Positions 9,201-63,818 of a stretch of 64,000 bases of DNA are shown here, piece by piece (within the stretch, counting starts at the first letter, position 1; the number at the start of each line of letters is the position of its first letter). The notes below the pieces were generated by a model that saw only the letters and a program-made list of their open reading frames with translations, made no database searches and was not told the origin of the DNA. The stretch is from assembly GCA_964617045.1 (NCBI GenBank), contig CAZTVZ010000002.1:12095-76094 (forward strand), read 5' to 3'. Position numbers and translations under genes: made by a program. This stretch comes from an uncultured Gammaproteobacteria bacterium. Its GTDB lineage: Bacteria; Patescibacteriota; Microgenomatia; UBA8517.

Positions 9201-9669
9201 TTTGATTTTCTCTTCGGAGAACCTGTTTATCACATTTCTGGCAAGTATTCTTATCTGGCTGATGTTTGCAGCCCTTCTTTTCGTGTGGGTTAAAAATAAA
9301 AGGGTAAGAAAAGATACCGCGATTAGGGCATTTTTGTCAGCACTGATAGCGTGGAGTGTTGCCGAAATAATAAAAATGATTATCAGTGTTCCGAGGCCGT
9401 ACGAAATAACCGGATACAGTCCTCTTACCGCGACAGTTCCGGGAACTAATTCATTTCCTTCAACACATTCGGCAGTTGCTGCCGCACTTGCAACAAGTTT
9501 GTTTCTGAGGGAGAAGTCGATAGGGATATATTTTGTAATGGGTGCGGTGGGGGTTGCTGTAGGGAGAATCCTTTCCAACGTTCATTATATTTTTGATGTT
9601 ATTGTCGGAATATGGATTGGAATTGTGGTTGGATTTGTGTCTTCAAAGGTAGGGATAAAAAGAAAATGA
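9193..9669 (+). CDS. PAP2-family membrane phosphatase (possible undecaprenyl-PP / lipid phosphatase)
   Basis: PAP2 motifs SFPSTHS and SNVHYIFDVIVG. 4-5 TM helices. Confidence 0.7.
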   Translation: MNNLIFSSENLFITFLASILIWLMFAALLFVWVKNKRVRKDTAIRAFLSALIAWSVAEIIKMIISVPRPYEITGYSPLTATVPGTNSFPSTHSAVAAALATSLFLREKSIGIYFVMGAVGVAVGRILSNVHYIFDVIVGIWIGIVVGFVSSKVGIKRK

Positions 9670-9672
9670 CAC

Positions 9673-9706
9673 TTGACTATTAGCAGTTAAAATAATAGAC
9701 TGCTAA
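9673..9706 (+). promoter_or_regulatory. lon promoter with embedded CIRCE-like inverted repeat
   Basis: -35 TTGACT, 17-nt spacer, -10-like TAGACT. IR TTAGCAGTT-N9-GACTGCTAA (9680-9706) ends 7 nt before the lon ATG. Same architecture as upstream of hsp20. Confidence 0.6.
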
Positions 9707-9713
9707 GATACAA

Positions 9714-40349: not shown

Positions 40350-40705
40350 AGGGGGGAGAAATATTCGCACTTTCCGGAAACTTGGGTGCCGGAAAAACTA
40401 CCTTCATGCAGGGATTTGCTGAAGGATTGGGATACTTGGGAAGGCTTACATCCCCAACTTTTATTTTAATGAGACAGTACTCCTTGCACGAAAAAACTCT
40501 TTTTCATTTGGATTTGTACCGTTTTGAGAAAAACATAAAAGACGAAATAGATAATCTTGGAGTGACCGATTTGTGGGGAAGAAAAGAAAACATTATGGTT
40601 ATCGAGTGGGCGGAGAAAATTAAAGAGTATTTACCAGAAAAGACAAAATGGATTAATTTTGAGATAATTGGTGACACGGAAAGGAAAATTACATATGAAG
40701 GGTAA
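40283..40705 (+). CDS. tsaE: tRNA t6A37 biosynthesis ATPase TsaE (YjeE)
   Basis: P-loop GNLGAGKTTFMQGFAEGLG and downstream SPTF, characteristic of TsaE. Confidence 0.85.
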   Translation: MEIITKNAEDTKELGRKIGSSIKGGEIFALSGNLGAGKTTFMQGFAEGLGYLGRLTSPTFILMRQYSLHEKTLFHLDLYRFEKNIKDEIDNLGVTDLWGRKENIMVIEWAEKIKEYLPEKTKWINFEIIGDTERKITYEG

Positions 40706-41684
40706 AATATTGGTTACCGGAGGTGCCGGGTACATTGGATCCTTTATGGTGAGGGCTTTGAAAAAAGCAGGTTTCACTCCGGTTATTGCCGACAATCTTT
40801 CTTCAGGTCATAAAGAAGCGGTTAAAGATTTTAAGTTTTATCAGATAGATATTGCGGAAGAACCAAATAAACTGGAGGAAATATTCAAAAAGGAAAAATT
40901 CCTAGGTGTTGTGAATATGGCGAGTTATATACAAATGGGTGAATCTTTCAGAAACCCGGCAAAATATTTCGATAATAACTTGAGAATTGCAATTAATGTA
41001 TTAAATATGATGGCCAAATATAATGTGCCTTATTTTATTTTTTCTTCTTCGGCTGGAGTGTATGGGAATCCAGAAAGGACACCTATTCGTGAAGACGACA
41101 GAAAAAATCCTCTTAATCCTTACGGAGAAACCAAATACCAGATTGAACGAATGCTTCAATGGTATGACACTGCATACGGTATGAAATTTGTTGCTTTAAG
41201 GTATTTTAATGCCGCAGGGGGAGCCATGGACGGATCCATTGGAGAAGACCATCCTGACGAAAGCCATTTGATACCTATTGCCTTGAAGTGTGCAATGGAA
41301 GACAGAGAATTTACCATTTTCGGTAAAGATTATAAAACCAAAGATGGGACATGCGAAAGAGATTATGTTCATGTACTGGATTTGTCAGAAGCACATGTTC
41401 TTGCACTCAAGTATTTGATTAAAGGAGGAAAAAGCGAATACGTGAATTGTGCCGTAGGTAAAGGATATTCCAACAACCAGATTGTAAAAGAAATCGAAAA
41501 AGTATTGGGTAAAAAGATGGCCGTAAAATACGGAGAAAGAAGAGCCGGAGATGCGGATAAACTATATGCTGCAAACTCAAAGATCAAAAAAATACTCGGA
41601 TGGAAACCCAAGTATGGACTCAATGAAATAATTTCTAGTGCCCACAAATGGCACAGCATGCATCCCAAAGGATATTTAAAATGA
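40695..41684 (+). CDS. galE: UDP-glucose 4-epimerase
   Basis: Rossmann TGGAGYIGS, catalytic YGETKYQIE (YxxxK), SDR extended family. ORF-track start 40668. Confidence 0.85.
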   Translation: MKGKILVTGGAGYIGSFMVRALKKAGFTPVIADNLSSGHKEAVKDFKFYQIDIAEEPNKLEEIFKKEKFLGVVNMASYIQMGESFRNPAKYFDNNLRIAINVLNMMAKYNVPYFIFSSSAGVYGNPERTPIREDDRKNPLNPYGETKYQIERMLQWYDTAYGMKFVALRYFNAAGGAMDGSIGEDHPDESHLIPIALKCAMEDREFTIFGKDYKTKDGTCERDYVHVLDLSEAHVLALKYLIKGGKSEYVNCAVGKGYSNNQIVKEIEKVLGKKMAVKYGERRAGDADKLYAANSKIKKILGWKPKYGLNEIISSAHKWHSMHPKGYLK

Positions 41685-49706: not shown

Positions 49707-50213
49707 TTGGGTATGAAAGAAAAACATCAGGATTTTATCTCGCCCACAAAAGGGCCTCTTTCCAAAGAAGAGGTTATCTCCGATATTGCCAAATTTATTG
49801 AATCAGGCCCCAATGAAAAATACCATATTGTATTGGGTACCGATTCTCAAGCTCACAACGATGACGGTGAGGACCATATTAATTTCGTAACCGCCCTTAT
49901 TGTTCATAGGGAAGGGAAAGGTGCTAAATACTACTGGAGGAAACAGGTCATTAAAGAAAAACCAATATTGAGAAAAAAGATTTGGACTGAAACAACAATA
50001 TCTCTTCTGACAGCTCAAGAATTAGTTCCGGAACTAAATGAAGCAATTACGGCAGTGAAGTTTGATTTTGAGATTCATATCGATGTTGGACCTTTGGGAA
50101 AAACAAGGGAAATGATCAAAGAAGTTGTTGGAATGATTAACGGAAACGGATTTGTGGCGAAAACAAAACCGGAAAGTTGGGGTGCTTCTTCTGTTGCCGA
50201 CAAGCACACTTAA
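49707..50213 (+). CDS. DUF458/YkuK-like RNase H-fold protein
   Basis: YHIVLGTDSQ and overall about 170-aa architecture resemble YkuK family. Confidence 0.45.
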   Translation: MGMKEKHQDFISPTKGPLSKEEVISDIAKFIESGPNEKYHIVLGTDSQAHNDDGEDHINFVTALIVHREGKGAKYYWRKQVIKEKPILRKKIWTETTISLLTAQELVPELNEAITAVKFDFEIHIDVGPLGKTREMIKEVVGMINGNGFVAKTKPESWGASSVADKHT

Positions 50214-50267
50214 CAGCCAGTTGAAATTAGTTATTTGATTTGATATGTTTAAGCATACAATTATAGT

Positions 50268-50984
50268 ATGAAAGGCGTTGTCTTAGCAGGCGGTTTAGGA
50301 TCAAGGTTATACCCTTTAACTTACGCTACCAATAAACATTTACTCCCCGTTTACGATCAGCCTATGGTATATTATCCGATCCAGACATTGGTAGGTGCAG
50401 GAATTCACGAAATAATGGTTGTTACCGGTGGTCCTCATGCAGGAGATTTTATAAATGTTTTGAAAAACGGAGATAAATTTGGAGTTTCTCATTTGGAATA
50501 TGCATTCCAAGAAGGTGAAGGAGGAATTGCAGATGCGCTTAGATTGGCAAAAAGTTTTTCGGATGGTGAACCGATTTGTGTTATTTTAGGAGACAATTGT
50601 ACGGATGCCGACATATCCGAATCTGTGCAGAACTTCAAATCGGGTGCAACAATATTCTTAAAAGAAGTTCCAGATCCTCAAAGATTCGGATGTCCCGAAA
50701 TGGACGACAAGGGTAATATTATAAACATAATAGAGAAACCCAAGAATCCTCCAACAAATTATGCTGTAACCGGATTATATTTTTACGACAAGGATGTTTT
50801 TGACAAGATTGAATCAATTAAGCCTTCAGACAGAGGAGAGCTAGAAATTACGGACATAAACAATTTATATCTCAAAGAAGGAAAGCTTAATTGGAGTTTG
50901 TTGAAAGGGTACTGGCGTGATGCCGGTACATTTGCTACACTATTCGAGGCCAATAAGTATTGGGCAGATAAGAAGGAGGCGTAA
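50268..50984 (+). CDS. rfbA: glucose-1-phosphate thymidylyl/nucleotidyl-transferase (short RmlA-like)
   Basis: MKGVVLAGGLGSRLYPLTYATNKHLLPVYDQPMVYYPIQTL signature. Confidence 0.8.
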   Translation: MKGVVLAGGLGSRLYPLTYATNKHLLPVYDQPMVYYPIQTLVGAGIHEIMVVTGGPHAGDFINVLKNGDKFGVSHLEYAFQEGEGGIADALRLAKSFSDGEPICVILGDNCTDADISESVQNFKSGATIFLKEVPDPQRFGCPEMDDKGNIINIIEKPKNPPTNYAVTGLYFYDKDVFDKIESIKPSDRGELEITDINNLYLKEGKLNWSLLKGYWRDAGTFATLFEANKYWADKKEA

Positions 50985-50994
50985 GAGAAACGAA

Positions 50995-52011
50995 ATGAAT
51001 TTATTAGTATGTGGAGGTGCCGGTTTTATAGGATCGAACTTTATTAGAGTGTTTCTTGAAGAACACCCTCAGGATAAGGTTGTCAATTTGGATAAATTAA
51101 CCTATGCCGGCAATTTGGAAAACTTGAAGGATGTTGAAAACAATCCAAATTATAAATTTGTTCAAGGAGATATCACCGACCTCGAGAGATTAAATGAAGT
51201 AATCAAAGAAAACTCAATCACCCATATTATTAATTTTGCGGCAGAGACACACGTTGATAGGTCAATTCATGGTGGATGTAAAGATTTTGTCTTAACAAAC
51301 ACATTGGGAGTGCAAATGATTCTCGATGCAGCCAAATTTAACAACATCGAAAAAATGGTTAACGTATCAACAGACGAAGTATATGGCGCACTTGAACTGG
51401 ACGAAGACAGAAAATTCACTGAAAAAACTCCCATTTGGCCAAATATGCCCTATGCAGCAGCAAAAGCAGGCGGAGATTTAATGTGTAATGCCTATTGGGT
51501 AACACACAAAGTTCCTGTAATTGTCACACACTGTTCAAATAATTATGGACCTTATCAATATCCGGAAAAATTAATTCCATTCTTTATTTTTAAAGCAATG
51601 GCTGGAGAAAAGTTGCCGGTGTACGGGGACGGATTGAATGTGCGTGATTGGATTTATGTAACAGATCATGCAAAAGCCTTAATTCTTCTTTTGGAGAAAG
51701 GTGTTCCCGGTGAGGTATATAATATTGGTTCTGATAATGAAAGAAATAATTTGGAAGTAACCAAAATGATACTTAAACATCTTGGTAAGCCTGAAGATGC
51801 ATTTGAGTATGTACAAGATAGACCTGGCCACGACAGAAGATATGCAATTGACGCTTCTAAGATAATGGCTTTAGGATGGAAACCGGAATATCCTCTTGAG
51901 AAATTTGAAGAAGGGTTAAGGAAGACCATTGATTGGTATTTGGAAAACAAAGACTGGGTTGACCATTTGAGAGAAAAAGCCAAAGAAGCAAACGCCCATA
52001 TTAAAAAATAA
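50995..52011 (+). CDS. rfbB: dTDP-glucose 4,6-dehydratase
   Basis: GGAGFIGSN Rossmann, catalytic YAAAKAGGD (YxxxK), STDEVYG. ATG at 50995; ORF-track start 50917 overlaps rfbA. Confidence 0.9.
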   Translation: MNLLVCGGAGFIGSNFIRVFLEEHPQDKVVNLDKLTYAGNLENLKDVENNPNYKFVQGDITDLERLNEVIKENSITHIINFAAETHVDRSIHGGCKDFVLTNTLGVQMILDAAKFNNIEKMVNVSTDEVYGALELDEDRKFTEKTPIWPNMPYAAAKAGGDLMCNAYWVTHKVPVIVTHCSNNYGPYQYPEKLIPFFIFKAMAGEKLPVYGDGLNVRDWIYVTDHAKALILLLEKGVPGEVYNIGSDNERNNLEVTKMILKHLGKPEDAFEYVQDRPGHDRRYAIDASKIMALGWKPEYPLEKFEEGLRKTIDWYLENKDWVDHLREKAKEANAHIKK

Positions 52012-52433
52012 TGGCACCAAAATTTAATCCAATTGATGTTCAGGTTGCTGATGCTCCGAATTTCACCATGAACGTTCTCGAAATTGTAAAGAAAATTCCC
52101 GAAGGGACATCTTTTGAAGTAAAACGTTTGTATTGGTTAACAAATGTTAAAAACGAAAAGATGTCCGGGAAACATGCACACACCGATGAAGATGAAATAT
52201 TTGTAGTCTTGCAGGGCAGTGCAGAATTAACCTTGGATGACGGAACGGGGGAAGAACAGGTAATGATGAACACTGGCCAAATGATATGGGTTCCTAGGTT
52301 GATTTGGCACGGATTTACCAAACTATCCGACGATTCGATAGTGCTTGCGTTATCAAGCACTCTTTACGATCCAGATAGAAAAGGCTATGTGAACGATAAA
52401 GAACAATTTATCCAATTAGCAACGAACAAATGA
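52011..52433 (+). CDS. FdtA/QdtA-like dTDP-4-keto-6-deoxyhexose 3,4-ketoisomerase (WxcM C-terminal-like cupin)
   Basis: About 140-aa cupin. Pattern KRLYWL...GKHAHTDEDEIFVVLQGS...LDDG...VWHGF...DSIVLALSS parallels FdtA (RVYYIFD...RGFHAHKKLEQVLVCLNGS...LDDG...VWHEM...DCVMMVLAS) as recalled from memory. Confidence 0.7.
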   Translation: MAPKFNPIDVQVADAPNFTMNVLEIVKKIPEGTSFEVKRLYWLTNVKNEKMSGKHAHTDEDEIFVVLQGSAELTLDDGTGEEQVMMNTGQMIWVPRLIWHGFTKLSDDSIVLALSSTLYDPDRKGYVNDKEQFIQLATNK

Positions 52434-53344
52434 GTGAAAGACTTCTTGTAACAGGTGCATCCGGTTTGGTGGGATCGAGATTCGTAGAACTGAAATCTCC
52501 TGATTGTGAAGTGTTGCCTACGGACATTAATACTTTCGATATTACGGATCGTGCCTCAGTGGAAAAATTTATTTTGGAAAATAAACCAACAGCGATAATC
52601 CATTTTGCCGGATATACGGATGTAGAAGGGGCTGAAAAAGAAAGAGGGCAAGAATCCGGCCCTGCATGGGAAGTAAACGTTTTAGGAACCAGAAATATTG
52701 CAGAAACGGCAGCAAAAAATGGGGTGTACATGATTCATATTTCGACCGATTTTGTGTTCAAAGGATCCGAGGATGATAAAGGACCCCATTCGGAAGATAA
52801 ACCTTTACCCGCCGACAATAATGGAATCGGTTGGTATGGCTGGACCAAAAAATTAGCCGAAGACGAGGTTCGGAAAGCCCATCCCAATGCATCCATTGCC
52901 AGGATAAGTTATCCGTTTAGAGCAAATTTTGAAGGTAAAAAAGATTTTGCCAGAAGTATTCTTTCTTTGTACGAAGGGGGAACACTATATCCTCTTTTCT
53001 CCGACCAATATCTAACACCGGCATTTATCGACGATATCGCCAAAGCATTAAATATATTGGTCAATAAAAAATTGCCCGGCACATTTCATCTGGTTTGTAC
53101 GGGAGTGACAACACCATTTGAATTTGGGAATTATCTATTGGAGAAAGCAAAAGGAGTAAAAGATGCTGTAAAACCTGGTTCTCTGAAAGAATTTATGAGT
53201 GTTCCGGGAAGGACGCCAAAACCTATGTATGGGGGACTTTTAAATGAAAAAACAGAAAGTATTTTGGGAATGAAATTTTTAACGTGGAAAGAAGCAATTG
53301 ACGAGCTCGTAAGGCAAATTAACTCTTCAAAAGATCAGGCCTAA
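52430..53344 (+). CDS. RmlD-like NAD(P)H-dependent dTDP-ketosugar reductase
   Basis: VTGASGLVGS Rossmann. RmlD substrate-binding-type SDR with YGWTKKLAE (YxxxK). Confidence 0.7.
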   Translation: MSERLLVTGASGLVGSRFVELKSPDCEVLPTDINTFDITDRASVEKFILENKPTAIIHFAGYTDVEGAEKERGQESGPAWEVNVLGTRNIAETAAKNGVYMIHISTDFVFKGSEDDKGPHSEDKPLPADNNGIGWYGWTKKLAEDEVRKAHPNASIARISYPFRANFEGKKDFARSILSLYEGGTLYPLFSDQYLTPAFIDDIAKALNILVNKKLPGTFHLVCTGVTTPFEFGNYLLEKAKGVKDAVKPGSLKEFMSVPGRTPKPMYGGLLNEKTESILGMKFLTWKEAIDELVRQINSSKDQA

Positions 53345-53990
53345 CTTTCATTGTTTTTTCTCGAGATTTCTCCTTTTTCCATTTTTCAATTTCACCATGA
53401 TTACCTCCCAGTAGTATTTCGGGAACTTTCCATCCTTTAAAACTTTCCGGCCTTGTGTATTGGGGGTATTCGAGTAGCCCGTCCGAAAATGATTCGTTTA
53501 TCGTTGCTTCTTCTTTTTTGAGAACTCCCGGGATTAGTCTGGCGACAGAATCGGCAATCAGCATTGCAGGCAACTCTCCACCCGTAAGAACAAAATCACC
53601 GATAGAAATTTCCTCGTCTACCAAATGATCGTGGATTCTTTCGTCAAATCCCTCAAAATGCCCCGCAAGGATTATTAAGTGTTTCAGTTTGGAATATTCC
53701 CTGGCTTTTTCTTGGGTATATTTATTTCCTCTTGGAGTTGTTATTACAACTTTGCATCCCGGAGTTTTAATTTCTTCCAGAATTTTATAAACCGGTTCTA
53801 CCATAATTATCATTCCTGCCCCTCCACTATACGGTCGGTCATCAACCGTTCTTCTTTCCCCAAGACCGTACTTTCTCAAATCATGAATGTTAAGCTCTAG
53901 AAGACCTTTTTCCTGGGCACGTTTAACAATAGATTCACTAAAGGGCCCCTCAAACATATTTGGAAATAATGTGACAATATCTATCCTCAT
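53319..53990 (-). CDS. trmD: tRNA (guanine37-N1)-methyltransferase
   Basis: MRIDIVTLFPNMFEGPF N-terminus and SPOUT knot motifs. Confidence 0.9.
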   Translation of the reverse strand: MRIDIVTLFPNMFEGPFSESIVKRAQEKGLLELNIHDLRKYGLGERRTVDDRPYSGGAGMIIMVEPVYKILEEIKTPGCKVVITTPRGNKYTQEKAREYSKLKHLIILAGHFEGFDERIHDHLVDEEISIGDFVLTGGELPAMLIADSVARLIPGVLKKEEATINESFSDGLLEYPQYTRPESFKGWKVPEILLGGNHGEIEKWKKEKSREKTMKVRPDLLKS

Positions 53991-54020: not shown

Positions 54021-55175
54021 GTGAAAACAATGAATAAAGTCGTAATAATAATGCCCACCTATAACGAGAAGGGTAATATTACAAAAATGATCGATACCCT
54101 CTTCAAAGAGGAATTCCCCAAGATATCCGAAGCTGAAATGCATCTTCTTGTAGTTGACGATAATTCTCCTGATGGAACCGGGGAAGTTGTTAAAGAAAAA
54201 ATGAAATCGCATAAAAACCTGCATCTTTTAACCGGAGAAAAACAGGGTTTGGGTTGGGCTTACATTAGAGGTATGAAACATGCAATGAAAGAATTGTCAG
54301 CCGATGCCGTAATGGAAATGGATGCGGATTTCCAGCATCCTCCGCGATTTGTCAAACCAATGGTTGAAGCTTATCTGAATGGAGCTGACTATTGTATTGG
54401 AAGCAGATATATTAAAGGTGGTTCGGTACCCAAAGAATGGGCGTTTTCCAGAAAGGCTATCTCATTTTTGGGAAATCTTTTTATAAGACTGGTTCTTCTT
54501 AAACCAGGGCTTCACGATTTGACGACAGGTTTTAGATTAACAAAAGTTGAGGGGGTACTCGATAAAATTGAACTCGATAACCTTATGGAACCGAAAAGAT
54601 TTGCTTACAAGGTTGATCTTCTTTATCAGAGTATCAAAAATTCCAAGAAAGTAGTTGAGGTTCCGCTCGAATTTGCTCCAAGACTTGAAGAGGCATCAAA
54701 GTTTAATCCCAAAGAAATGATATCTACTTTCAAAGTTGCGATTATTTTGGGGATTAAAGACAAGATGAAAATAATTAAATTCGGTACGGTTGGTTTTATT
54801 GGATTCATGGTTAATTTTATTTTAATCAGAGTTTTCAGGTCGTTTGGGTTACCGGAGATGGTTGTTTGGTTTTTGGCAACAGAGGCTGCAATAGTAAACA
54901 ATTTTGTGTTCAATAATATATGGACTTTTAAGGAAGCTCAGATATCGGGAATTGGTAAATGGTTGCAGAAGTTTTTGCAGTTCAATCTTACTTCCGCCGG
55001 AGCATTGGCAATTCAAACCGTTTTCGGATCTTTGGGGGTAAAATGGTTTGGAGCACAATATGACTGGTTAATACTCGCAGTAGTGGTTGTCTTTATGGTC
55101 CTTCCTTACAATTACACGATGTACAATCTTGTTATTTGGAAGACTTGGAAAAACCCTTTTTCTAAAAAAAAGTAA
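54021..55175 (+). CDS. GT2 polyprenyl-phosphate glycosyltransferase (Dpm1/GtrB-like) fused to GtrA-like membrane domain
   Basis: GT2 motifs (IIMPTYNE, VVDDNSPDGT, DADFQHPP). C-terminal 4-TM GtrA-like region. Confidence 0.8.
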   Translation: MKTMNKVVIIMPTYNEKGNITKMIDTLFKEEFPKISEAEMHLLVVDDNSPDGTGEVVKEKMKSHKNLHLLTGEKQGLGWAYIRGMKHAMKELSADAVMEMDADFQHPPRFVKPMVEAYLNGADYCIGSRYIKGGSVPKEWAFSRKAISFLGNLFIRLVLLKPGLHDLTTGFRLTKVEGVLDKIELDNLMEPKRFAYKVDLLYQSIKNSKKVVEVPLEFAPRLEEASKFNPKEMISTFKVAIILGIKDKMKIIKFGTVGFIGFMVNFILIRVFRSFGLPEMVVWFLATEAAIVNNFVFNNIWTFKEAQISGIGKWLQKFLQFNLTSAGALAIQTVFGSLGVKWFGAQYDWLILAVVVVFMVLPYNYTMYNLVIWKTWKNPFSKKK

Positions 55176-55219
55176 TCTGAGAGCTTTTGAGAGAACTGCC
55201 TTTGCTATAATATTCCGAA

Positions 55220-56092
55220 ATGGCCGAAAAATTGACTAACCCCGAGCAGAGGGAAAGAGACTTCAATAAAATGCTCGTTGCCGAATATTTGAAATACGGT
55301 TCTGTCGACGAAGTCTATCGAAGACACGATTACAATCTCCCCATATCTTATCCCGGATATCAGAGACTTTTGGACAGATGGGGGATAGTCAAATCAGCCG
55401 GTCCAAACAGTACTCTTTCGGAAGCTATTACTTTCATGACAATGCTTTCGGATCACAAAATGCCCCTGGAAACTGTTTACAGGAAACTACCCCCGAGCTT
55501 TAAAACATCTATGGCAACCATGCATAGAATTCTTCACAACATTAAAGAGGGTGCAACAAGAAGGTTTGGAACCGCAGTTGTTGTTACAAGAGAGGGTGAA
55601 GATGAAAAAATGCTTGTCGGAGAAGATATTTCAACTCCGAGATTGGAATACGGAAAACCTTATGGCTCAGTGTCTTTACCTATGACATTTTCAAAGATGA
55701 GTGAAACTCCCAAGGAATCGGTAAAAAGAGTATTGCAGCAGGAAGTGTTTACAAAAGAAACAATTGAAAATGTATTTCCGGAAAATATTATCCCAAACGA
55801 TATTAAACCATTTATGTATTTTGACATTGCCGACATCAATGTCGCCGTATTTCATTTGGTATTGCCTAAGAAAACGTTAGTTAAGAATTTTAGTAGTTTC
55901 AAATTGCACGACTATCGTTTTGCCGATATTTCAGAATTTATGGGAAGTGAAAGAAAAGCGCATGTCAGATCAGGTATGAGAGATATCGCAGAAGGGTACA
56001 AAAAATTTATTGAAGGCTCAACTGTAGAGGCGAAAGTATCAAATCTTAACGTGAGGTTGTCTCAATTGGCTCCGGAATACTTACATTATTAG
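55220..56092 (+). CDS. hypothetical protein (290 aa)
   Basis: ORF only. Confidence 0.4.
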   Translation: MAEKLTNPEQRERDFNKMLVAEYLKYGSVDEVYRRHDYNLPISYPGYQRLLDRWGIVKSAGPNSTLSEAITFMTMLSDHKMPLETVYRKLPPSFKTSMATMHRILHNIKEGATRRFGTAVVVTREGEDEKMLVGEDISTPRLEYGKPYGSVSLPMTFSKMSETPKESVKRVLQQEVFTKETIENVFPENIIPNDIKPFMYFDIADINVAVFHLVLPKKTLVKNFSSFKLHDYRFADISEFMGSERKAHVRSGMRDIAEGYKKFIEGSTVEAKVSNLNVRLSQLAPEYLHY

Positions 56093-56264
56093 ATTTGTTT
56101 TCAAAAATTACTCCATGTTGTTCTGCTAATTCCACAACGTTCACAGGTTTGGTTACGGTTCGAATATCCGCTTTGCAATTCTCGCATATACCTCTTGGAG
56201 GAAGGGAGATCTCTCCACATCCGTTACAAACACTACCTTCCAGGCGAAGAAGCGAATGTTTCAT
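56046..56264 (-). CDS. small zinc-ribbon protein
   Basis: CNGCGE...CENCK four-Cys ribbon. Convergent with and overlapping the previous gene's 3' end. Confidence 0.4.
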   Translation of the reverse strand: MKHSLLRLEGSVCNGCGEISLPPRGICENCKADIRTVTKPVNVVELAEQHGVIFENKSNNVSIPEPIETTSR

Positions 56265-56384
56265 TCTCCAAAATCTAGGAACTTCCATCTTAAATGAGAT
56301 TATAAGCGGTTAAATCTATCAAACACTATCAACTTGGTGTATGCACTTGTGGAAGAATAGCTTCAAATTTGCTAGACTTCAGAT

Positions 56385-57095
56385 ATGGCTAAGTACCTAA
56401 TAGATAAACTGTCGGTTTTCTTTCCCGCCTACAACGAAGAAATTAATATAAGAAGTACCGTTACAAAAGCCGTAAACGTTTTGAATAAAACCGCTAAAAC
56501 TTGGGAAATTATTATTGTTAACGACGGATCGAAAGACAAGACGGGTGAAATATCAGACTCTATGGCCAAAAAAGACAAGAGAATAAGGGTAATTCACCAC
56601 AACCCCAACAGGGGGTACGGAGCAGCCTTAAAAAGCGGTTTATATGGTTCCAGATATCCTTGGATTGTGTTTACAGACTCTGACGGACAGTTTGATTTTG
56701 CTCAACTTCCAAACTTTATTAACACACAAAAAGAAACAGGAGCAGATCTTGTAATCGGATACTATCTTGAAAGAAAAGTACCCTTCAACAGGAAACTAAA
56801 TACTTTTTTGTGGCAAACGGTTGTAAATATTCTTTTTGGACTACATGTAAAAGATATTGATTGCGGATTTAAATTAATCAGTAAAAAGGTGTTGGACAAG
56901 ATTCCAAAACTTGAATCCGAAAGAGGAGCTTTTATTTCCAGCGAGTTTTTAATAAAGGCCAAAAAGATGAAATTTAAGATTGTGGAAATTGGCGCAAAAC
57001 ATTTTCCGGCCAAAAAACCGGGTACGGGTGCCCATCTGAATGTAATAATCAAAAGCTTCATTGATCTTTTCAGATTATGGAAAAAATTAAGGTAA
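56385..57095 (+). CDS. GT2 polyprenyl-phosphate glycosyltransferase (Dpm1/ArnC-like)
   Basis: LSVFFPAYNEE, IIVNDGSKDKT, TDSDGQFD motifs. Confidence 0.85.
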   Translation: MAKYLIDKLSVFFPAYNEEINIRSTVTKAVNVLNKTAKTWEIIIVNDGSKDKTGEISDSMAKKDKRIRVIHHNPNRGYGAALKSGLYGSRYPWIVFTDSDGQFDFAQLPNFINTQKETGADLVIGYYLERKVPFNRKLNTFLWQTVVNILFGLHVKDIDCGFKLISKKVLDKIPKLESERGAFISSEFLIKAKKMKFKIVEIGAKHFPAKKPGTGAHLNVIIKSFIDLFRLWKKLR

Positions 57096-58588
57096 AGATT
57101 AGGGGTTTTTTAAAAAACAACACAAAAGAAATAATCGTCGTTGGTATTATTCTTCTTTTGGCTGCATTCTTGAGGTTATATCGTATTTCCGAATATATGC
57201 AATTTATGGGCGACGAAGGCAGGGATATGATTGTTGTCAGAAATCTCCTTGTAAACAAAGACCTTATCCTTATAGGGCCGGGCACATCGGTGGGCAATAT
57301 GTACTTGGGGCCATTATACTATTATCTTATTGCACCGGCACTTCTTCTGTTCGATTTTGAACCGGTTGGGCCGGCAATAATGGTTGCGCTATTGGGGGTT
57401 GGAACTGTGCTTTTAACATACTTACTTACCAAAAAGTGGTTTGGTATTAGAGCTGGTGTTATTGCGGCTTTTTTCAGTGCAATATCGTATCTCTTTATCA
57501 AATACTCGATATTTTCCTGGAATCCGAACGTTCTTCCTTTTTTCTCGATTCTTTCGGTGTTTCTGCTAAGTGAAATAAAAGAAAAGAAAAGTTGGCTGAT
57601 TATTCCATCGCTTGCTTCTTTTGCTTTTGTTCTGCAGTCCCATTACATGGGGATATTTTTATTTCCGGTTCTTCTGACTATATGGATTTATAAACTCAAA
57701 AACGACAAAGCTGTTAAAAGATACCTTGTAAATACTTTATTGGGGGTATTGTTGTTCTTACTCTTGATGTCACCGCTTCTTATTTTCGACCTGAGACACG
57801 GAATGATGAATTACAACGCGCTTATGGTTTATCTTAATGGGCTTGGAGGTTCCAGGACTTATTCAACGGTTACTTTATTCGATAGGGTTTTATCCAATTT
57901 TCGGTTTATGGTCGGAGAAGTTGTTGGTTCAAAGTTTGACACAATTATTACCGGCGGTTATTCGTTCCTCCTTGTGATAGGAATGATTTACCTTTCTTTC
58001 TATCACAAAAACAAATACGCAGTGTTGACGACAATAATTTGGTTTGTTATTGCGGTGTTGGGGCTAACTATCTACGGTGGAAGAATAATATCCCACTACT
58101 ATGGTTATGCCTTTGCAGTTATTCCGATAATCGTAGGTGCTGTTGTGGGCGATTTAATGAAAAGAAAATATTTGGGTATTATCTTCGCTTTTCTTCTAAT
58201 GTCCCCGGTTATTTATTTTGCTGTGATTAATTCCAATTTAAATTGGAAACCAAATCGGCTCGTACAAAAAGCCGAAGCGGTTGCGGATAAAATAATTGAG
58301 GAATCCGAAGGAAAAGAGTTAAACCTTGCGGTATTGTCCAATTTTAATTATGAAGATGGATACCAATATTTTGTTGAGAAGAAAGGATACGTTGCAAAAG
58401 ACATTGATCCTTCGAAATTCAACGAGACTGTAACGGATCAGCTGTTTGTTGTTTGTGAGCTGGAGGAAGAAAATTGCAAACCTACAAGCAATCCCAATAC
58501 TCAAATTGCCAATTTCGGCTGGAGTAAAATTGTCGGTAAATGGCAAATTGAAAACGTTATTTTATATAAATTAACCCATATACAATGA
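57077..58588 (+). CDS. GT-C fold membrane glycosyltransferase (ArnT/PMT-like), paralog 1
   Basis: About 11-13 TM. First-loop acidic motif MGDEGRD and conserved LIGPGTSVGNMYLGPLYYYL shared with paralogs 2-3. Confidence 0.65.
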   Translation: MEKIKVKIRGFLKNNTKEIIVVGIILLLAAFLRLYRISEYMQFMGDEGRDMIVVRNLLVNKDLILIGPGTSVGNMYLGPLYYYLIAPALLLFDFEPVGPAIMVALLGVGTVLLTYLLTKKWFGIRAGVIAAFFSAISYLFIKYSIFSWNPNVLPFFSILSVFLLSEIKEKKSWLIIPSLASFAFVLQSHYMGIFLFPVLLTIWIYKLKNDKAVKRYLVNTLLGVLLFLLLMSPLLIFDLRHGMMNYNALMVYLNGLGGSRTYSTVTLFDRVLSNFRFMVGEVVGSKFDTIITGGYSFLLVIGMIYLSFYHKNKYAVLTTIIWFVIAVLGLTIYGGRIISHYYGYAFAVIPIIVGAVVGDLMKRKYLGIIFAFLLMSPVIYFAVINSNLNWKPNRLVQKAEAVADKIIEESEGKELNLAVLSNFNYEDGYQYFVEKKGYVAKDIDPSKFNETVTDQLFVVCELEEENCKPTSNPNTQIANFGWSKIVGKWQIENVILYKLTHIQ

Positions 58589-60063
58589 AAAAACTGTTTA
58601 CACCGCTTAATATGCTTCTTTTTTCTATTTTGGTTATTGCTCTGGTTTTAAGGATTAATCACACGGAAAGAATTCTCGGTTTTTGGTATGACCAAGGAAG
58701 AGATGCTCAAGTAGTTTGGGATTTTATACACAAAGGAAAGTTTTTCTTGATTGGACCTACAACCGGTATTGAAGGTATTTTTAGAGGCCCCTGGTACTAT
58801 TGGCTAATTACACCCTTTTATTTTTTGTCCAAAGGAAACCCTGTTCTTCCGGCAATGTTTCTTGCCTCAACAACCGTTTTGGGAATATATTTTCTTTATA
58901 AAATCGGTGAAAGATTGGGAGGAGTAAAAACAGGGATATTTGCATCGGTACTTGCCACGTTGTCTTTCTACCTTGTTTCGGCATCAAGATGGTTAAGTAA
59001 TCCCACACCGATGTTCCTCATCAGCACTTTAACGGTTTGGTTTTTGCTAAGGTTTATTGACGGGAAGAAGTTTTCTCTTATTTGGGTGGGTCTATTAACG
59101 GGACTTGCAATTCAGTTCGGTTCGGCAGCTGAGGTTTTTTATATCCCTTCAATTTTTATTCTTTTACTTATTTACAAAAAGAAAATTAAAAATATTGGCA
59201 AATTGATACTACCGGCGATGATGTTTGTTCTCATTTTTATTCCACAGCTGTGGTTCAATTTCCGACACGATGGTGTATTTTTGGCGGCATTAAATAAATT
59301 TTTGGTTGAAGAGCAAAGTTTTAAATTATCTTTTTGGCAAATGATACAGGTAAGATTTCCTTTTTATCTCGACATGATTTCCTCAAAATTCTGGTTAAAC
59401 GATGTTAAGGCGTTTACTCCGTTTGTCGGTGCCGTAATTGCGGCAATGATTATGTATTGGAAAGAAATGTGGAAGAAAGACGAATTTAAGATTATTTTTA
59501 TTTTTACACTGACACCTTTTTTGGGAATGCTGTTTTTCCAAGGAAACCACGGAAATGTATATGAATATTATTTTTCGGGTTACTTTTATCTTTGGATTCT
59601 CCTTTTTGCTTATTGTTTGATAATGCTTGCGAGAAGTTTTGTCGGAAAGATTGTATTAATTGTTTTTATGGGGATATTCCTTTTCAAAAACATTCCTTTG
59701 TCTTATGGAATGGCTTTTAGAATGGGAGATGATGGAACCTCCGCAATATACTTGAGCAATCAAAAAAAGATAATCGATTGGATATACGATGATGCTACAG
59801 ATCAACCTTTTAATATCGATGTTTATGTTCCCCCTGTAATACCGCATGCATACAACTATCTCTTTGAATGGTATGGTGGGACTGTTAAGGAGAGACAGCC
59901 GAATAAAGAATTGGTGGATACTTTGTACACGATATATGAACTTGATATTCCCCATCCCGAAAGACTTGATGTTTGGTTAAAACGTCAGGATACGATAGGC
60001 AAGGTTGTTGACGAATACAGATATGGAGGAATAACCGTACAAAAAAGGATTAGAATCCAATGA
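58585..60063 (+). CDS. GT-C fold membrane glycosyltransferase, paralog 2
   Basis: YDQGRD and LIGPTTGIEGIFRGPWYYWL; ATGA overlap with paralog 1. Confidence 0.65.
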   Translation: MKKLFTPLNMLLFSILVIALVLRINHTERILGFWYDQGRDAQVVWDFIHKGKFFLIGPTTGIEGIFRGPWYYWLITPFYFLSKGNPVLPAMFLASTTVLGIYFLYKIGERLGGVKTGIFASVLATLSFYLVSASRWLSNPTPMFLISTLTVWFLLRFIDGKKFSLIWVGLLTGLAIQFGSAAEVFYIPSIFILLLIYKKKIKNIGKLILPAMMFVLIFIPQLWFNFRHDGVFLAALNKFLVEEQSFKLSFWQMIQVRFPFYLDMISSKFWLNDVKAFTPFVGAVIAAMIMYWKEMWKKDEFKIIFIFTLTPFLGMLFFQGNHGNVYEYYFSGYFYLWILLFAYCLIMLARSFVGKIVLIVFMGIFLFKNIPLSYGMAFRMGDDGTSAIYLSNQKKIIDWIYDDATDQPFNIDVYVPPVIPHAYNYLFEWYGGTVKERQPNKELVDTLYTIYELDIPHPERLDVWLKRQDTIGKVVDEYRYGGITVQKRIRIQ

Positions 60064-61541
60064 TTAATAAAATACTTAAAAGCCCGCTGTTTTATTTGAT
60101 CTTGATAGTTATCATTGCAACAGGATTGAGATTGTTCAGACTTTCCGATTATTTTTACTATGCACACGATAACGATTTGGCCGCATGGATGGTGAAGGAC
60201 ATTGTAAAAAATGGACACCTTAGATTAATCGGACAGGAGACCTCAACGGCAGGAATATTTATTGGTCCATTTTTTTACTATCTTATGATTCCGTTCTTTT
60301 TACTTACTAATCTCGATCCGATTGGAATTACTTATTCTGGAATTATTCTTGGTATCGTAACGACACTCAGTTTCTTTTATGTATTTTACTCAACTCACAA
60401 CAAAAAAGTTGCTTTTATTGCAACCATTATCTATGCAACATCGCAATATTTGGTTTTCAACGACAAGGAGATTGTTCCTACGATGTTTGTTTATCTTTGG
60501 ACTGTTTGGTATTACTTCGCTATAAAAAAGCTATTGGATGGAAAAAAGATTGGTTATATTGTTTCGGGTATACTAATCAGTTTTATTTGGCATATAAATT
60601 TTGCTCTTGTGCTTCTTCTTCCTTTAATCCCCGTTGCAATCCTAATGTCAGGAAAGAAATTGAATTATAGATATATTCTTTATGGATTATTGGCAATTAT
60701 TCCCATGTCCATTCCGTTATTACTGTTTGAATTTAGACATGGATTCATGCAGATAAACGCTTTAATTACCTCGCTTACAACAACTCAAAGCCAAGTATTC
60801 ACGCTTTCGGAAAGATTCAATAGAGTATTGGAGTTATCCGGGAAAAACTTAAAAAGCCTTCTTCTCCCGGGAATATTCGAAGGGGCAAGTATGTATGCAA
60901 CGATAGTTGGGGTTATAGTACTTTTCCTGGCAATATATAAAAAAATAATGGATAAAAAAACCGGAATATTAATTTTCTCCTGGATACTTTTATATATGCT
61001 TTTCTTTACTTTTTATTCAAAGATATTATCTGAATATTATTTAAACGGAATGATTGTTGCCTGGATTGTTGTTTTTTCTATTCTTATCGGAAGACTTTTT
61101 GAAATGAATAACAAGACAAAAATTTTGGGTGCTCTTTTAATGTTTATGGTTGTTGAATCAAACTTGGAGGCAATATATTTGATGCCAATAAATAAAAGCG
61201 GATATTTACACAGAAAAGAAATTGTCAGATTAATAGACGAGGACAGGCAAAAACAGGATTATCCTTGTGTATCGGTTTCTTATATCACTGAGGTCGGCAA
61301 TGATTTGGGATATCGATTCTTTTTTTATCTGAGAGATATGCATGTCGGTAAACCGGCCGGTGGTGCACCCGTTTATTCAATTGTTTATCCTTTATCAATG
61401 GTAGACAAAGTAGACTTGGAGGTCGGTGCTTTGGGTCTCATTTATCCTGACTATAAAAAATACAGTAAAGCCGAAATCGAAAAAGTGTGTTCAGGTGAAA
61501 ATCCCAACTTATTTGAGCCGATGTTCGGGTATACTGAATAG
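60060..61541 (+). CDS. GT-C fold membrane glycosyltransferase, paralog 3
   Basis: HDNDLAAW and LIGQETSTAGIFIGPFFYYL; overlap with paralog 2. Confidence 0.65.
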   Translation: MINKILKSPLFYLILIVIIATGLRLFRLSDYFYYAHDNDLAAWMVKDIVKNGHLRLIGQETSTAGIFIGPFFYYLMIPFFLLTNLDPIGITYSGIILGIVTTLSFFYVFYSTHNKKVAFIATIIYATSQYLVFNDKEIVPTMFVYLWTVWYYFAIKKLLDGKKIGYIVSGILISFIWHINFALVLLLPLIPVAILMSGKKLNYRYILYGLLAIIPMSIPLLLFEFRHGFMQINALITSLTTTQSQVFTLSERFNRVLELSGKNLKSLLLPGIFEGASMYATIVGVIVLFLAIYKKIMDKKTGILIFSWILLYMLFFTFYSKILSEYYLNGMIVAWIVVFSILIGRLFEMNNKTKILGALLMFMVVESNLEAIYLMPINKSGYLHRKEIVRLIDEDRQKQDYPCVSVSYITEVGNDLGYRFFFYLRDMHVGKPAGGAPVYSIVYPLSMVDKVDLEVGALGLIYPDYKKYSKAEIEKVCSGENPNLFEPMFGYTE

Positions 61542-61545
61542 ACAT

Positions 61546-62298
61546 ATGTTTTTAACCGTAATTATTCCTTGTTATAACGAATCAGCCAATCTGAAAAGAG
61601 GGGTTTTGAGAGATGTTTATAAATATCTCTCCGGAAAGATGTTTTCTTGGGAGGTACTTGTTTCGGACGACGGATCGACCGACGACAGCAAGGATGTAAT
61701 CAAAAAAGAAATTGCAAAACTGCGAGGTTTTAAACTTCTTGAAAATCCACACGGAGGAAAACCGTCGGCCCTTCTCTATGGAATCCGTGCTGCGAAAGGG
61801 GATTATATATTGTTTACAGACATGGACCAATCAACACCAATCACGGAATTGGAAAAGTTAATTCCTTTTGTTAAAGATAACGATGTGGTAATCGGTTCGA
61901 GAGGAATGAAGAGGGAAAATTTTCCTCTTTACAGAAAAATGGGTGCGGCGGTGTTTATGAGCATCAGAAGAGCTCTTATTCTTCCCGAAATAAAAGATAC
62001 GCAATGCGGATTTAAATTGTTTGAAGCAAATGCTCTTAAAAAAGCATTTCCAAAGTTGGAGTTTTTTCAAAAGAATGAAAAAGTTGTCGGATGGAAGGTT
62101 ACTTCGTTTGATGTCGAATTATTGCAAATCTTGAAAATGATGCGCAAGAAAATAAAAGAAATTACCGTTACCTGGATCGACGAAGACACAAGTAGTAGTA
62201 AAGGTGGAGGATTATCGAGATATGTTAAAGAATCCAAAGAAATGCTTTTACAAATATTGAGGGTAAAAATTAACGAACTCCGCGGCGTATACAAATGA
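61546..62298 (+). CDS. GT2 polyprenyl-phosphate glycosyltransferase (Dpm1-like)
   Basis: VIIPCYNESANL, LVSDDGSTDDS, TDMDQST. ATG at 61546 preferred over ORF-track start 61426, which lies inside the upstream gene. Confidence 0.8.
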   Translation: MFLTVIIPCYNESANLKRGVLRDVYKYLSGKMFSWEVLVSDDGSTDDSKDVIKKEIAKLRGFKLLENPHGGKPSALLYGIRAAKGDYILFTDMDQSTPITELEKLIPFVKDNDVVIGSRGMKRENFPLYRKMGAAVFMSIRRALILPEIKDTQCGFKLFEANALKKAFPKLEFFQKNEKVVGWKVTSFDVELLQILKMMRKKIKEITVTWIDEDTSSSKGGGLSRYVKESKEMLLQILRVKINELRGVYK

Positions 62299-63818
62299 AA
62301 CAATTTTTGAAAGACAAAAAGGCAATGCTTATTCTTGGTGTTTTGTTAGTGTTGGGAATTATTTTCAGGTTTGTAAATTTGACACAGGTTCCGGTATTTG
62401 CCGATGAAGCGATATATTTAAGATGGGCTCAAATAATGAGAGCCGAAGAGACATTGAGATTTCTTCCGCTTTCCGATGGAAAACAACCCCTCTATATGTG
62501 GACAGTCATTCCCTTTTTTAAATTTATTTCCGATCCTCTTGTTGCAGGAAGAATTCTTTCTATTCTTACGGGGCTTGCAACGGGAATTTTTATATATCTT
62601 TCTTCCCGTCTTCTTTTTGAAAACAAAAAAGTTGCAATATTAGCATTTGCCATTTCGATGTTGTCACCATTTTTAATATTCTTCAACAAACTTGCTCTTG
62701 TTGATTCAATGCTAGCAATGTTTGGGGTAATGACTTTTTTCTTTACTTTACTTACGGCAAAAACAAGAAGGAATGATTGGGCGATAGTTGCAGGTGCATG
62801 TTTAGGTGCCGCATATCTCACCAAATCACCGGCATTGTTTTTTGCTTTAGGAATCCCTTTTTCTCTTCTTCTGTTTTCTTATAAAGGAAAAGGGTTTAAG
62901 GGAATATTAAATGCAATATTTTTGATTGCCTTGATTGAAATAATCGGTTACGCAATTAGTAATATATTAAGACTTGGCCCAAATTTTCATTTAATCAAAA
63001 TGAGAAATATGGATTATGTTTATCCGATTAACCACATACTCGAAAGTCCGTTTTCTCCTTTTGTTTCTCATTTTAAAGCATCATTCGAATATCTATGGAT
63101 AATGGGACCGTCTGCGTTATTAGGTTTATTCTTTTTGGGGATCTTCACAAATCTCAGAAAATATTGGAGGGAAATAATCTTCACTTTGGCATTTATTGCA
63201 ATTCCACTTATAGCCAACAGTGAATATGCAAAGGTATATACGGCAAGATATATGTTGTACATGGTGCCTTTTATCGCCCTATTGGCGGGAAATGCAATCG
63301 ACTATAAAAACAAAGTATTAAATGTGGTAGTAAATATTTTGATTATTTTATTTATTGGTCATAGTATGTTTATCAATTTGGAAACAATATATGCTGTCGA
63401 AAAAGTGAATCTTCCGAGGGGAGAAAGATCTGGTTATTTTGAAGAATGGACTGCCGGATACGGGATTAAAGAAATATCGGAATTTCTTAAAGAAGAACGT
63501 AAGGATAATCCAAATAAAAAGATAGTAGTCGGAACTGAAGGATATTTTGGAACCCTACCCGACGGACTTCAAATGTATATGAGTGATACTCCTGAAGTAA
63601 TCGTAATCGGTGTCGGATTAGGGATTGATAGAATTCCGAATCCTCTTTTAGAATCATTCAAAAGTGGAAATAGTACTTATCTTGTTGTTAATAATTCCAG
63701 ATTGTTGGGTAACCCGGAGAAGATGGGAATGGAAATTGTGGCGGCTTATCCAAAACAAGTCAGACCTGACGGATCAAGAGAGTCATTGTATCTGCTTAAA
63801 GTGAAAGGAATTAGATAA
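62295..63818 (+). CDS. GT-C fold membrane glycosyltransferase (ArnT/PMT_2-like, DE motif), paralog 4
   Basis: VFADEAIYLRWAQ first-loop motif typical of ArnT/GT39/GT83. Multi-TM. Confidence 0.7.
   Translation: MKQFLKDKKAMLILGVLLVLGIIFRFVNLTQVPVFADEAIYLRWAQIMRAEETLRFLPLSDGKQPLYMWTVIPFFKFISDPLVAGRILSILTGLATGIFIYLSSRLLFENKKVAILAFAISMLSPFLIFFNKLALVDSMLAMFGVMTFFFTLLTAKTRRNDWAIVAGACLGAAYLTKSPALFFALGIPFSLLLFSYKGKGFKGILNAIFLIALIEIIGYAISNILRLGPNFHLIKMRNMDYVYPINHILESPFSPFVSHFKASFEYLWIMGPSALLGLFFLGIFTNLRKYWREIIFTLAFIAIPLIANSEYAKVYTARYMLYMVPFIALLAGNAIDYKNKVLNVVVNILIILFIGHSMFINLETIYAVEKVNLPRGERSGYFEEWTAGYGIKEISEFLKEERKDNPNKKIVVGTEGYFGTLPDGLQMYMSDTPEVIVIGVGLGIDRIPNPLLESFKSGNSTYLVVNNSRLLGNPEKMGMEIVAAYPKQVRPDGSRESLYLLKVKGIR

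Follow-up and report, generated by a model that had tools for sequence, protein, structure and literature searches.

Can an rml operon supply its reductase RmlD without RmlC? The biosynthetic route to deoxythymidine diphosphate (dTDP)-L-rhamnose is among the sugar pathways that are known best, and RmlC counts as an indispensable constituent of it. The question is raised by a four-gene cluster at positions 50268–53344 of a 64-kb stretch of DNA from an uncultured bacterium (contig CAZTVZ010000002.1; the whole stretch is called the window hereafter), in which a small cupin gene lies between rmlB and rmlD. An initial annotation of this cluster had read the cupin as an FdtA/QdtA-like 3,4-ketoisomerase and had predicted a sugar other than L-rhamnose as the product. 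We found that the cluster is a real and conserved variant of the rml operon, which is apparently undescribed. Its four open reading frames (ORFs) are co-oriented and abutting:

50268–50984, plus strand, short-form sugar-1-phosphate nucleotidyltransferase, probably RmlA (glucose-1-phosphate thymidylyltransferase), 238 aa (PF00483, E 7.8e-57)

50995–52011 (ORF from 50917), plus strand, RmlB, dTDP-glucose 4,6-dehydratase, 338 aa (PF16363, E 5e-74)

52011–52433, plus strand, cupin of predicted FdtA/QdtA fold in the RmlC slot, distinct subfamily, 140 aa (PF05523, 84.6 bits)

52430–53344, plus strand, RmlD-family NAD(P)H-dependent reductase, 304 aa (PF04321, E 1.3e-53, 182 bits)

Pfam and NCBIfam matches indicated that the coordinates, the gene content and the family assignments of the initial annotation were correct. 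For the nucleotidyltransferase, the best NCBIfam models were rmlA and rmlA_long, and both remained under their cut-offs (TIGR01207 rmlA, 241 bits vs 360). The RmlB of the window reached the equivalog level (TIGR01181, 455 bits; cut-off 365), matched the RmlB of PDB entry 6bi4 with 374 bits and carries the TDE and YxxxK motifs (STDEVYG and YAAAK). Its likely start is the ATG at 50995, which is preceded by GGAGG, and 50917 is the alternative start of the ORF. The gene junctions consist, in order, of a 10-nt gap, a 1-nt overlap (TAATG) of the rmlB stop with the cupin start and a 4-nt overlap (ATGA) of the cupin stop with the rmlD start, and this arrangement suggests that the cluster forms one translationally coupled operon.

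The initial annotation had noted that no RmlC is encoded nearby, and this was borne out for the window. Neither tblastn nor a hidden Markov model built from Woesebacteria RmlCs detected an RmlC in the 64 kb, and a broad cupin search of the window with jackhmmer yielded the ORF at 52005–52430 as sole match and no RmlC. The jackhmmer run that was started from a short RmlC drifted into the whole cupin superfamily; relatedness was taken from its first iteration (phmmer) only, and the complete run served only for the sensitive detection of cupins. A DegT aminotransferase, the absence of which had also been noted, was not found in the window by tblastn. Pfam scans of about 40 other window ORFs, with about 15 further ORFs outside the scan, returned housekeeping, envelope and glycosyltransferase genes and neither an aminotransferase nor an acetyltransferase.

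The position of the cupin was compared with nine sampled neighbourhoods of RmlD homologues. Six Woesebacteria/Microgenomates loci, which were reached via RmlD homologues of about 50% identity, keep the synteny of the window, and the common gene order is CAP, an 86-aa gene, an RNaseH-like gene, rmlA, rmlB, X, rmlD, convergent trmD, a GT2-GtrA fusion (GT2, glycosyltransferase family 2), a 290-aa gene, GT2 and PMT_2. Here, the place of X is taken by the cupin in the window as well as in L004, L007, L009, L013 and L017. In L090, L092, L093, L098 and L099, X is a canonical PF00908 RmlC of 190–194 aa, and in L096 (735–2315) it is an RmlB::RmlC fusion protein of 526 aa. When a cupin locus (L013) was compared with an RmlC locus (L099), the degree of amino acid identity was 87% for TrmD, 75% for RmlD and 72% for RmlA, and it was 47% for RmlB. 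From the identity matrices, it can be seen that RmlA, RmlD, TrmD and GT2-GtrA track organismal relatedness regardless of the nature of X; the RmlA of the window, for instance, is 62–69% identical to the RmlA of sister loci, cupin type and RmlC type alike. RmlB behaves differently: its identity amounts to 76–83% within the cupin loci and to 43–57% between the cupin and the RmlC types, and the RmlB of the window shares 76–80% with the RmlB of other cupin loci and 44–53% with those that stand beside a canonical RmlC. Since RmlB is split by type while RmlA, RmlD, TrmD and GT2-GtrA follow the organism, the unit of replacement is rmlB together with X.

The two RmlB types are separated by 55 alignment columns. 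Both pass TIGR01181 and match solved RmlB structures equally well, and neither the motifs nor the PDB similarity lent support to the idea that the cupin-associated RmlB is an unusual dehydratase. As a side observation, three of the RmlC loci encode an RmlB of double length (630–635 aa) with no intein domain on record (L090 3488–5395, L093 29–1933, L098 1532–3424).

The reductase, in turn, gave no indication of a new function. Every one of its best matches in the PDB is a dTDP-4-dehydrorhamnose reductase (1vl0, 5.5e-31), and the GxxGxxG (TGASGLVG), STD and YGWTK motifs are present, so that the S/T-Y-K triad is complete. With TIGR01214, it scored 174 bits, which is under the cut-off of 224. However, the corresponding scores were 154–174 bits for cupin-partnered RmlDs and 155–173 bits for RmlC-partnered ones, and since the RmlC-partnered sisters score alike, the low value is a lineage trait and was rejected as a sign of a non-RmlD function. 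With six RmlC-partnered RmlDs that occupy the corresponding syntenic position, the RmlD of the window shares 47–52% identity. Not a single alignment column separates seven cupin-partnered from six RmlC-partnered RmlDs (the TrmD control also gave 0), and in a neighbour-joining tree calculated from BLOSUM distances the two groups interleave. As judged from these alignments, the reductase is orthologous to RmlDs working with RmlC and there is no sign of adaptation to a new substrate. The initial annotation had named an rmlC elsewhere in the genome together with a bona fide RmlD as a finding that would speak against its proposal, and in part this applies: by orthology, the reductase does behave as a bona fide RmlD. 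The products suggested there, D-fucose or a 6-deoxy-gulose/allose-type sugar formed via a 3-keto intermediate, are not backed by this comparison, considering the orthology of RmlD and the lack of partner-specific columns.

For the 140-aa cupin, the initial annotation had proposed an FdtA-like rather than an RmlC-like protein, and this assignment was confirmed. The cupin exceeded the cut-off of PF05523 (FdtA) of 23 bits by far and failed with both RmlC profiles (PF00908, 23.6 bits at a cut-off of 27; TIGR01221, 17.1 bits at a cut-off of 155.75), and its alignment with the Woesebacteria RmlCs by hhalign yielded an E-value of 0.069. In phmmer searches of the PDB, E-values for 3,4-ketoisomerases ranged between 1.6e-16 and 5.6e-7 (WlaRA 1.6e-16, FdtA 8.7e-13), whereas RmlC matched with 2e-3 or worse. 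An AlphaFold (AF2) model was built on 121 homologues and reached a predicted local distance difference test (pLDDT) score of 95.4. When this model was compared with the PDB by Foldseek, the top 42 matches were all 3,4-ketoisomerases with template modelling (TM) scores of 0.80–0.85, and RmlC-family proteins gave 0.66–0.71. Thus, by profile and by predicted fold the cupin is a member of the PF05523 superfamily. Sequence comparison places it outside the RmlC family, yet it stands in RmlC's place.

Inspection of the active site modified this picture. The residues H55 and H57 of the cupin correspond to the catalytic pair H49/H51 of FdtA and are invariant in 121 members of the subfamily, H100 is located at the position of FdtA H95, and H55 also aligns with the base His of RmlC. 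At the aligned position of the acid Tyr of RmlC the cupin has a leucine (L114), and confidence in the cupin/RmlC alignments is moderate, as they involve remote homologues. The catalytic His check suggested in the initial annotation therefore stood in part: the pair is present and the RmlC acid Tyr is absent, but the pair had to be dropped as a discriminator of ketoisomerases since HxH also occurs in PF00908 proteins (WHIH in the RmlC of L092, WHLH in a short RmlC of L100).

Compared with classical single-domain FdtA homologues, the subfamily has kept R39, Y41, H55, H57, W99-H100 and Y126, which are invariant within it. In contrast, the N-terminal DxRG turn (D 96%, R 96%, G 100% in classical members) is lost in the subfamily, where T/A-P-x-F is found instead (DAPNF in the window), with hardly any overlap between the two motifs (120, 63 and 3 sequences). 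This D-x-R-G turn occurs in RmlC, too. The corresponding DxRGxL position is R15 in FdtA and Y17 in QdtA, and this site is tied to product stereochemistry; PDB entry 4zu7, which we take to be the Y17R/R97H mutant of QdtA, addresses the site equivalent to the lost DxRG arginine. The arginine preceding GxHxH (R46 of FdtA), which is conserved in 96–100% of the classical members, is replaced by T in 80% of the subfamily and by S52 in the window. The subfamily has gained invariant E60 and E62 as well as R123 inside a two-residue insertion (SSTNYxPxRxxY). Because both conserved arginines and the aminotransferase partnership are missing, we advise against classing the cupin as a standard 3,4-ketoisomerase. 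The subfamily is large and originates mostly from metagenome-assembled genomes (MAGs) of Patescibacteria, as indicated by an exhaustive profile search and a word-indexed search. Relatives that carry a name belong to Candidatus Woesebacteria, the Microgenomates group and the Patescibacteria group, and the window accordingly stems, in all probability, from a bacterium of the candidate phyla radiation in that group. Domain fusions among the cupin homologues (DegT, glycosyltransferase and methyltransferase fusions, tandem cupins) were informative for classical members only.

To what extent the arrangement recurs was read from a metagenome scan that comprised 80 loci, 74 of them with distinct cupins. 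The gene arrangement is found in these 74 distinct metagenomic loci and hence is not due to chance. Of the 62 loci whose upstream sequence is long enough, 55 have RmlB immediately upstream of the cupin and another 4 have it at a distance of up to 1.5 kb (59/62). Sufficient downstream sequence was available for 56 loci; an RmlD-family gene adjoins the cupin in 25 of them and is no more than 4 kb away in another 16 (41/56), and in one further locus (L040 2262–3884) an RmlD::RmlA fusion protein of 540 aa follows directly after the cupin, which brings the total to 42/56. All 38 distinct reductases near a cupin match PF04321, and 17 of them match TIGR01214 at an E-value equivalent to the trusted cut-off, which is about the rmlD equivalog level. 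No DegT aminotransferase was present in the searched loci L001–L089, whereas DegT adjoins classical FdtA in both positive controls (L094, L095; Sulfitobacter plasmid, Acetoanaerobium). Apart from L100, none of the roughly 73 other distinct loci yielded a PF00908 protein at a distance of up to about 5 kb (contig permitting). ORFs of about 180 aa that lie between cupin and RmlD in some loci were considered as hidden RmlCs and rejected, as they encode NUDIX, NTPase, IMPase, GT2 or HD proteins; a NUDIX hydrolase gene lies there in L019 (5451–5996), L025 (5432–5971) and L028 (5432–5968), and in L101 NUDIX and HIT genes are located just upstream of RmlB. A tblastn search of a plasmid collection returned classical FdtA contexts only and no haloarchaeal match.

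How can these data be reconciled? Our preferred explanation, which we hold tentatively and rate at slightly under an even chance, is that the cupin constitutes a non-orthologous functional replacement of RmlC feeding an ordinary RmlD. The in situ swap, the restriction of the difference between close relatives to the module and the lack of adaptation of RmlD to its partner argue for this scenario, and so do the broad recurrence, the rarity of RmlC near the cupin, the remodelled active site and a shared first catalytic step. FdtA catalysis starts with a His-mediated deprotonation next to the 4-keto group. The RmlC mechanism begins in the same way, and active-site residues do not predict epimerase specificity (PMC9095892). 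Since RmlC and FdtA share this first deprotonation step, an epimerase role of the cupin is mechanistically conceivable. According to this scenario, the canonical RmlC and the neighbouring RmlB would have been displaced in situ by a two-gene module consisting of a distinct RmlB type and the FdtA-fold cupin. RmlA would form dTDP-glucose and RmlB would convert it to dTDP-4-keto-6-deoxy-D-glucose. H55 of the cupin, as the equivalent of the RmlC and FdtA base, might then deprotonate this compound beside the 4-keto group to give the same 4-keto intermediate that RmlC supplies in the sister genomes, and the unmodified orthologous RmlD would reduce it at C-4, most likely to dTDP-L-rhamnose. That the cupin acts as an epimerase rather than as a 3,4-ketoisomerase, and which sugar finally results, are what we infer from the comparison.

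Several observations weigh against such a replacement. We know of no enzyme of the FdtA family that epimerises, and both sequence and predicted fold put the cupin firmly among the ketoisomerases, with the His pair retained and without a Tyr at the RmlC acid position. RmlB is swapped together with the cupin, which is not needed for a simple epimerase replacement, and the absence of RmlC was established for the 64-kb window and not for the whole genome. In L059 (707–2754), which is unique among the 74 loci, the place of RmlD after the cupin is occupied by a Gfo/Idh/MocA oxidoreductase plus an ATP-grasp enzyme, and the Gfo/Idh/MocA family includes sugar 3-ketoreductases. The locus L100, which stems from a MAG labelled Candidatus Udaeobacter, carries an RmlB-cupin-RmlD-HD module at 8947–11890 and, in addition, at 1377–2798 a gene for a short-chain dehydrogenase/reductase (SDR) and one for a short PF00908 protein of 160 aa, 7 kb upstream of the cupin module. 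This short cupin, which contains the WHLH mentioned above, also lacks a Tyr at the RmlC acid position. The two cupin types can thus coexist, and L100 suggests that two separate dTDP-6-deoxyhexose branches may operate in at least one organism.

If the cupin does not stand in for RmlC, the module of RmlB and cupin may make an intermediate other than that of RmlC, either a 3-keto sugar or a singly epimerised one, which is accepted by an unmodified RmlD; we consider this rather unlikely, though worth keeping in view. One form of it, to which we assign a still lower probability, takes the cupin as a true dTDP-4-keto-6-deoxyglucose 3,4-ketoisomerase, with the RmlD-family enzyme reducing the 3-keto sugar; the resulting 6-deoxyhexose would be D-configured, for example D-fucose, D-quinovose, 6-deoxy-D-gulose or 6-deoxy-D-allose. 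Membership in PF05523, the His pair, H100 at the position of FdtA H95 and a fold that is closest to those of FdtA, WlaRA and QdtA are all consistent with this assignment; the oxidoreductase directly downstream of the cupin in L059 points in the same direction, as does the separate PF00908 and SDR pair of L100, which suggests that the product of the cupin branch is a different one there. However, this route requires a reduction at C-3 of a D-sugar by RmlD despite its 75% identity to an RmlC-partnered orthologue and without any partner-specific columns, and to our knowledge no RmlD-family 3-ketoreductase has been described. That nearly half of the cupin-partnered reductases (17/38) score at about the rmlD equivalog level, that two arginines invariant in classical ketoisomerases are gone and that the usual aminotransferase partner occurs in no searched locus also argues against a ketoisomerase. 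The other form, which we regard as improbable, is a mono-epimerase, most simply acting at C-3, followed by reduction at C-4 by RmlD to, for example, dTDP-6-deoxy-D-allose, in parallel to pathways of the ChmJ/GerF type. This would be the smallest departure from FdtA chemistry, as C-3 is the carbon deprotonated by FdtA-type enzymes, and it would fit the coupling of the cupin with a 4-reductase-type SDR and the lack of an aminotransferase. Single-site paralogues of RmlC do exist and their residues are not predictive of specificity (PMC9095892). On the other hand, the orthology of RmlD weighs against this route as well, which demands that RmlD, although unchanged, takes a D-ribo 4-ketosugar instead of an L-lyxo one.

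About equally improbable is that a canonical rmlC elsewhere in the genome serves RmlD and that the cupin has a side-branch or accessory role. The contig measures at least 145 kb, of which the window covers 64 kb, and in L100 a PF00908 protein does lie 7 kb away from the cupin module. However, RmlC occupies exactly the cupin slot in the sister genomes, neither the window nor the searched surroundings (about 5 kb, contig permitting) of the roughly 73 other loci yielded a PF00908 protein, and the cupin is translationally coupled to both of its neighbours. Moreover, genomes of the candidate phyla radiation (CPR) are small and rarely redundant. A split of labour, in which the cupin-associated RmlB sets C-5 during dehydration like the inverting 4,6-dehydratases and the cupin epimerises C-3 only, would account for the joint travel of RmlB and cupin and for the 55 type-specific RmlB columns. 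Yet this RmlB has the retaining-type STDEVYG and YxxxK motifs, passes the equivalog model and matches solved RmlBs like the other type, and the known inverting dehydratases belong to another SDR subfamily, so that we give this variant hardly any chance.

Among characterized systems, FdtA, QdtA, WlaRA, WlaRB and FdtD (PF05523; PDB 2pa7, 4o9e, 5tpv, 5tpu, 4mzu) share the predicted fold of the cupin (TM-scores as given above, root-mean-square deviation 1.8–2.9 Å). Sequence identity amounts to 21–27%, the His pair, the WH motif and the KR-x-Y strand are common to both, and both would act downstream of RmlB. Unlike these ketoisomerases, the cupin has neither the arginine of DxRG nor the one preceding GxHxH, carries E60, E62 and the R123 insertion, and is flanked by RmlB and RmlD, with no adjoining DegT aminotransferase or acyltransferase found. 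With RmlC (PF00908), it shares the superfamily, the aligned base His and the slot between rmlB and rmlD of syntenic sisters; it differs from RmlC by its size (140 vs about 190 aa), by scores below the PF00908 and TIGR01221 cut-offs, by the missing acid Tyr and DxRGxF and by the weaker fold similarity. A possible functional analogue is provided by the single-site RmlC paralogues ChmJ/NovW (3-epimerase) and EvaD (5-epimerase) (PMC9095892, Table 1). These cupins act on dTDP-4-keto-6-deoxyglucose ahead of a 4-ketoreductase and lead to non-rhamnose 6-deoxyhexoses, but they are PF00908 proteins with the full His/Tyr set, unlike the cupin of the window. The dTDP-rhamnose pathway of Haloferax volcanii (Agl11–Agl14) involves a 156-aa epimerase, Agl13, and its product was assigned by mass only (PMC4022621); it resembles the present cluster in having four enzymes with an unusually short cupin paired with RmlD. 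The C-terminus of Agl13 (...NAEIHG), which is encoded by a published reverse primer (PMC4022621), resembles the end of the short PF00908 protein of L100 (...SWEIVHG), whose own relationship to the cupin of the window is no more than remote (phmmer E about 3e-3). Agl13 thus is probably another cupin type, as far as can be judged from a comparison of its C-terminus only. A full-text literature search turned up no publication in which an FdtA-like cupin is described together with RmlD as its partner.

These data suggest that many CPR bacteria may make their deoxysugar with an uncharacterised enzyme. The database labels of the subfamily read "FdtA/QdtA family cupin domain-containing protein", "mannose-6-phosphate isomerase-like protein" and "uncharacterized cupin superfamily protein", and because the RmlC slot is filled by a cupin with such non-RmlC labels, reconstructions of rhamnose synthesis in cupin-bearing organisms may come out incomplete. 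If the cupin is an epimerase, it would represent a second, independently derived solution within the cupin superfamily, and neither the His pair nor PF05523 membership would then be diagnostic of ketoisomerase chemistry. Should it be a ketoisomerase instead, the scope of RmlD-type reductases would be broader than thought and CPR surfaces would carry an unexpected sugar. More generally, if the module makes a different intermediate, the sugar on display in many CPR bacteria would be a dTDP-derived 6-deoxyhexose distinct from L-rhamnose, made via a pathway without characterised precedent, and RmlD-family enzymes would possess an unrecognised regio- or stereo-flexibility.

Directly upstream of the first gene of the cluster, a promoter-like site was found:

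50240–50267, plus strand, TTGATA-16-TATAGT, 10/12 consensus match only

Such sites occur 18 times in the region (13.7 expected), and this makes the match weak evidence for a promoter. The RNaseH-like gene (PF04308) at 49707–50213 is located immediately upstream of the cluster, and this position is kept in most relatives with upstream sequence, irrespective of whether they belong to the cupin or to the RmlC type. At the other end, trmD (53319–53990, minus strand) runs towards rmlD, with an overlap of 26 nt at the 3' end of the latter; most Woesebacteria-type relatives likewise have rmlD and trmD in convergent orientation, overlapping or not. It is followed by a glycosylation block (54021–63818), which comprises the GT2-GtrA fusion, the 290-aa gene (no Pfam match), GT2, two PMT_2 (GT-C) genes (57077–58588 and 58585–60063) and a further GT2, as well as a 493-aa ORF without a Pfam match and a 507-aa ORF (62295–63818). 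This block, which the initial annotation had presumed to consume the sugar, is equally conserved beside canonical rmlBCD clusters. Another gene of the extended-SDR type (PF01370/PF16363, 338 aa) is found at 40668–41684, 9 kb upstream of the cluster. In the segment 42656–47483, a sortase gene (PF04203) directly precedes a 1410-aa ORF, the product of which ends with LPATGSE, a hydrophobic stretch and a basic tail, the signature of an LPXTG-type surface protein; its positional homologue in L092 contains SpaA/SdrD_B/CLIPPER domains. An even longer ORF of 1764 aa is located at 13893–19187 on the minus strand.

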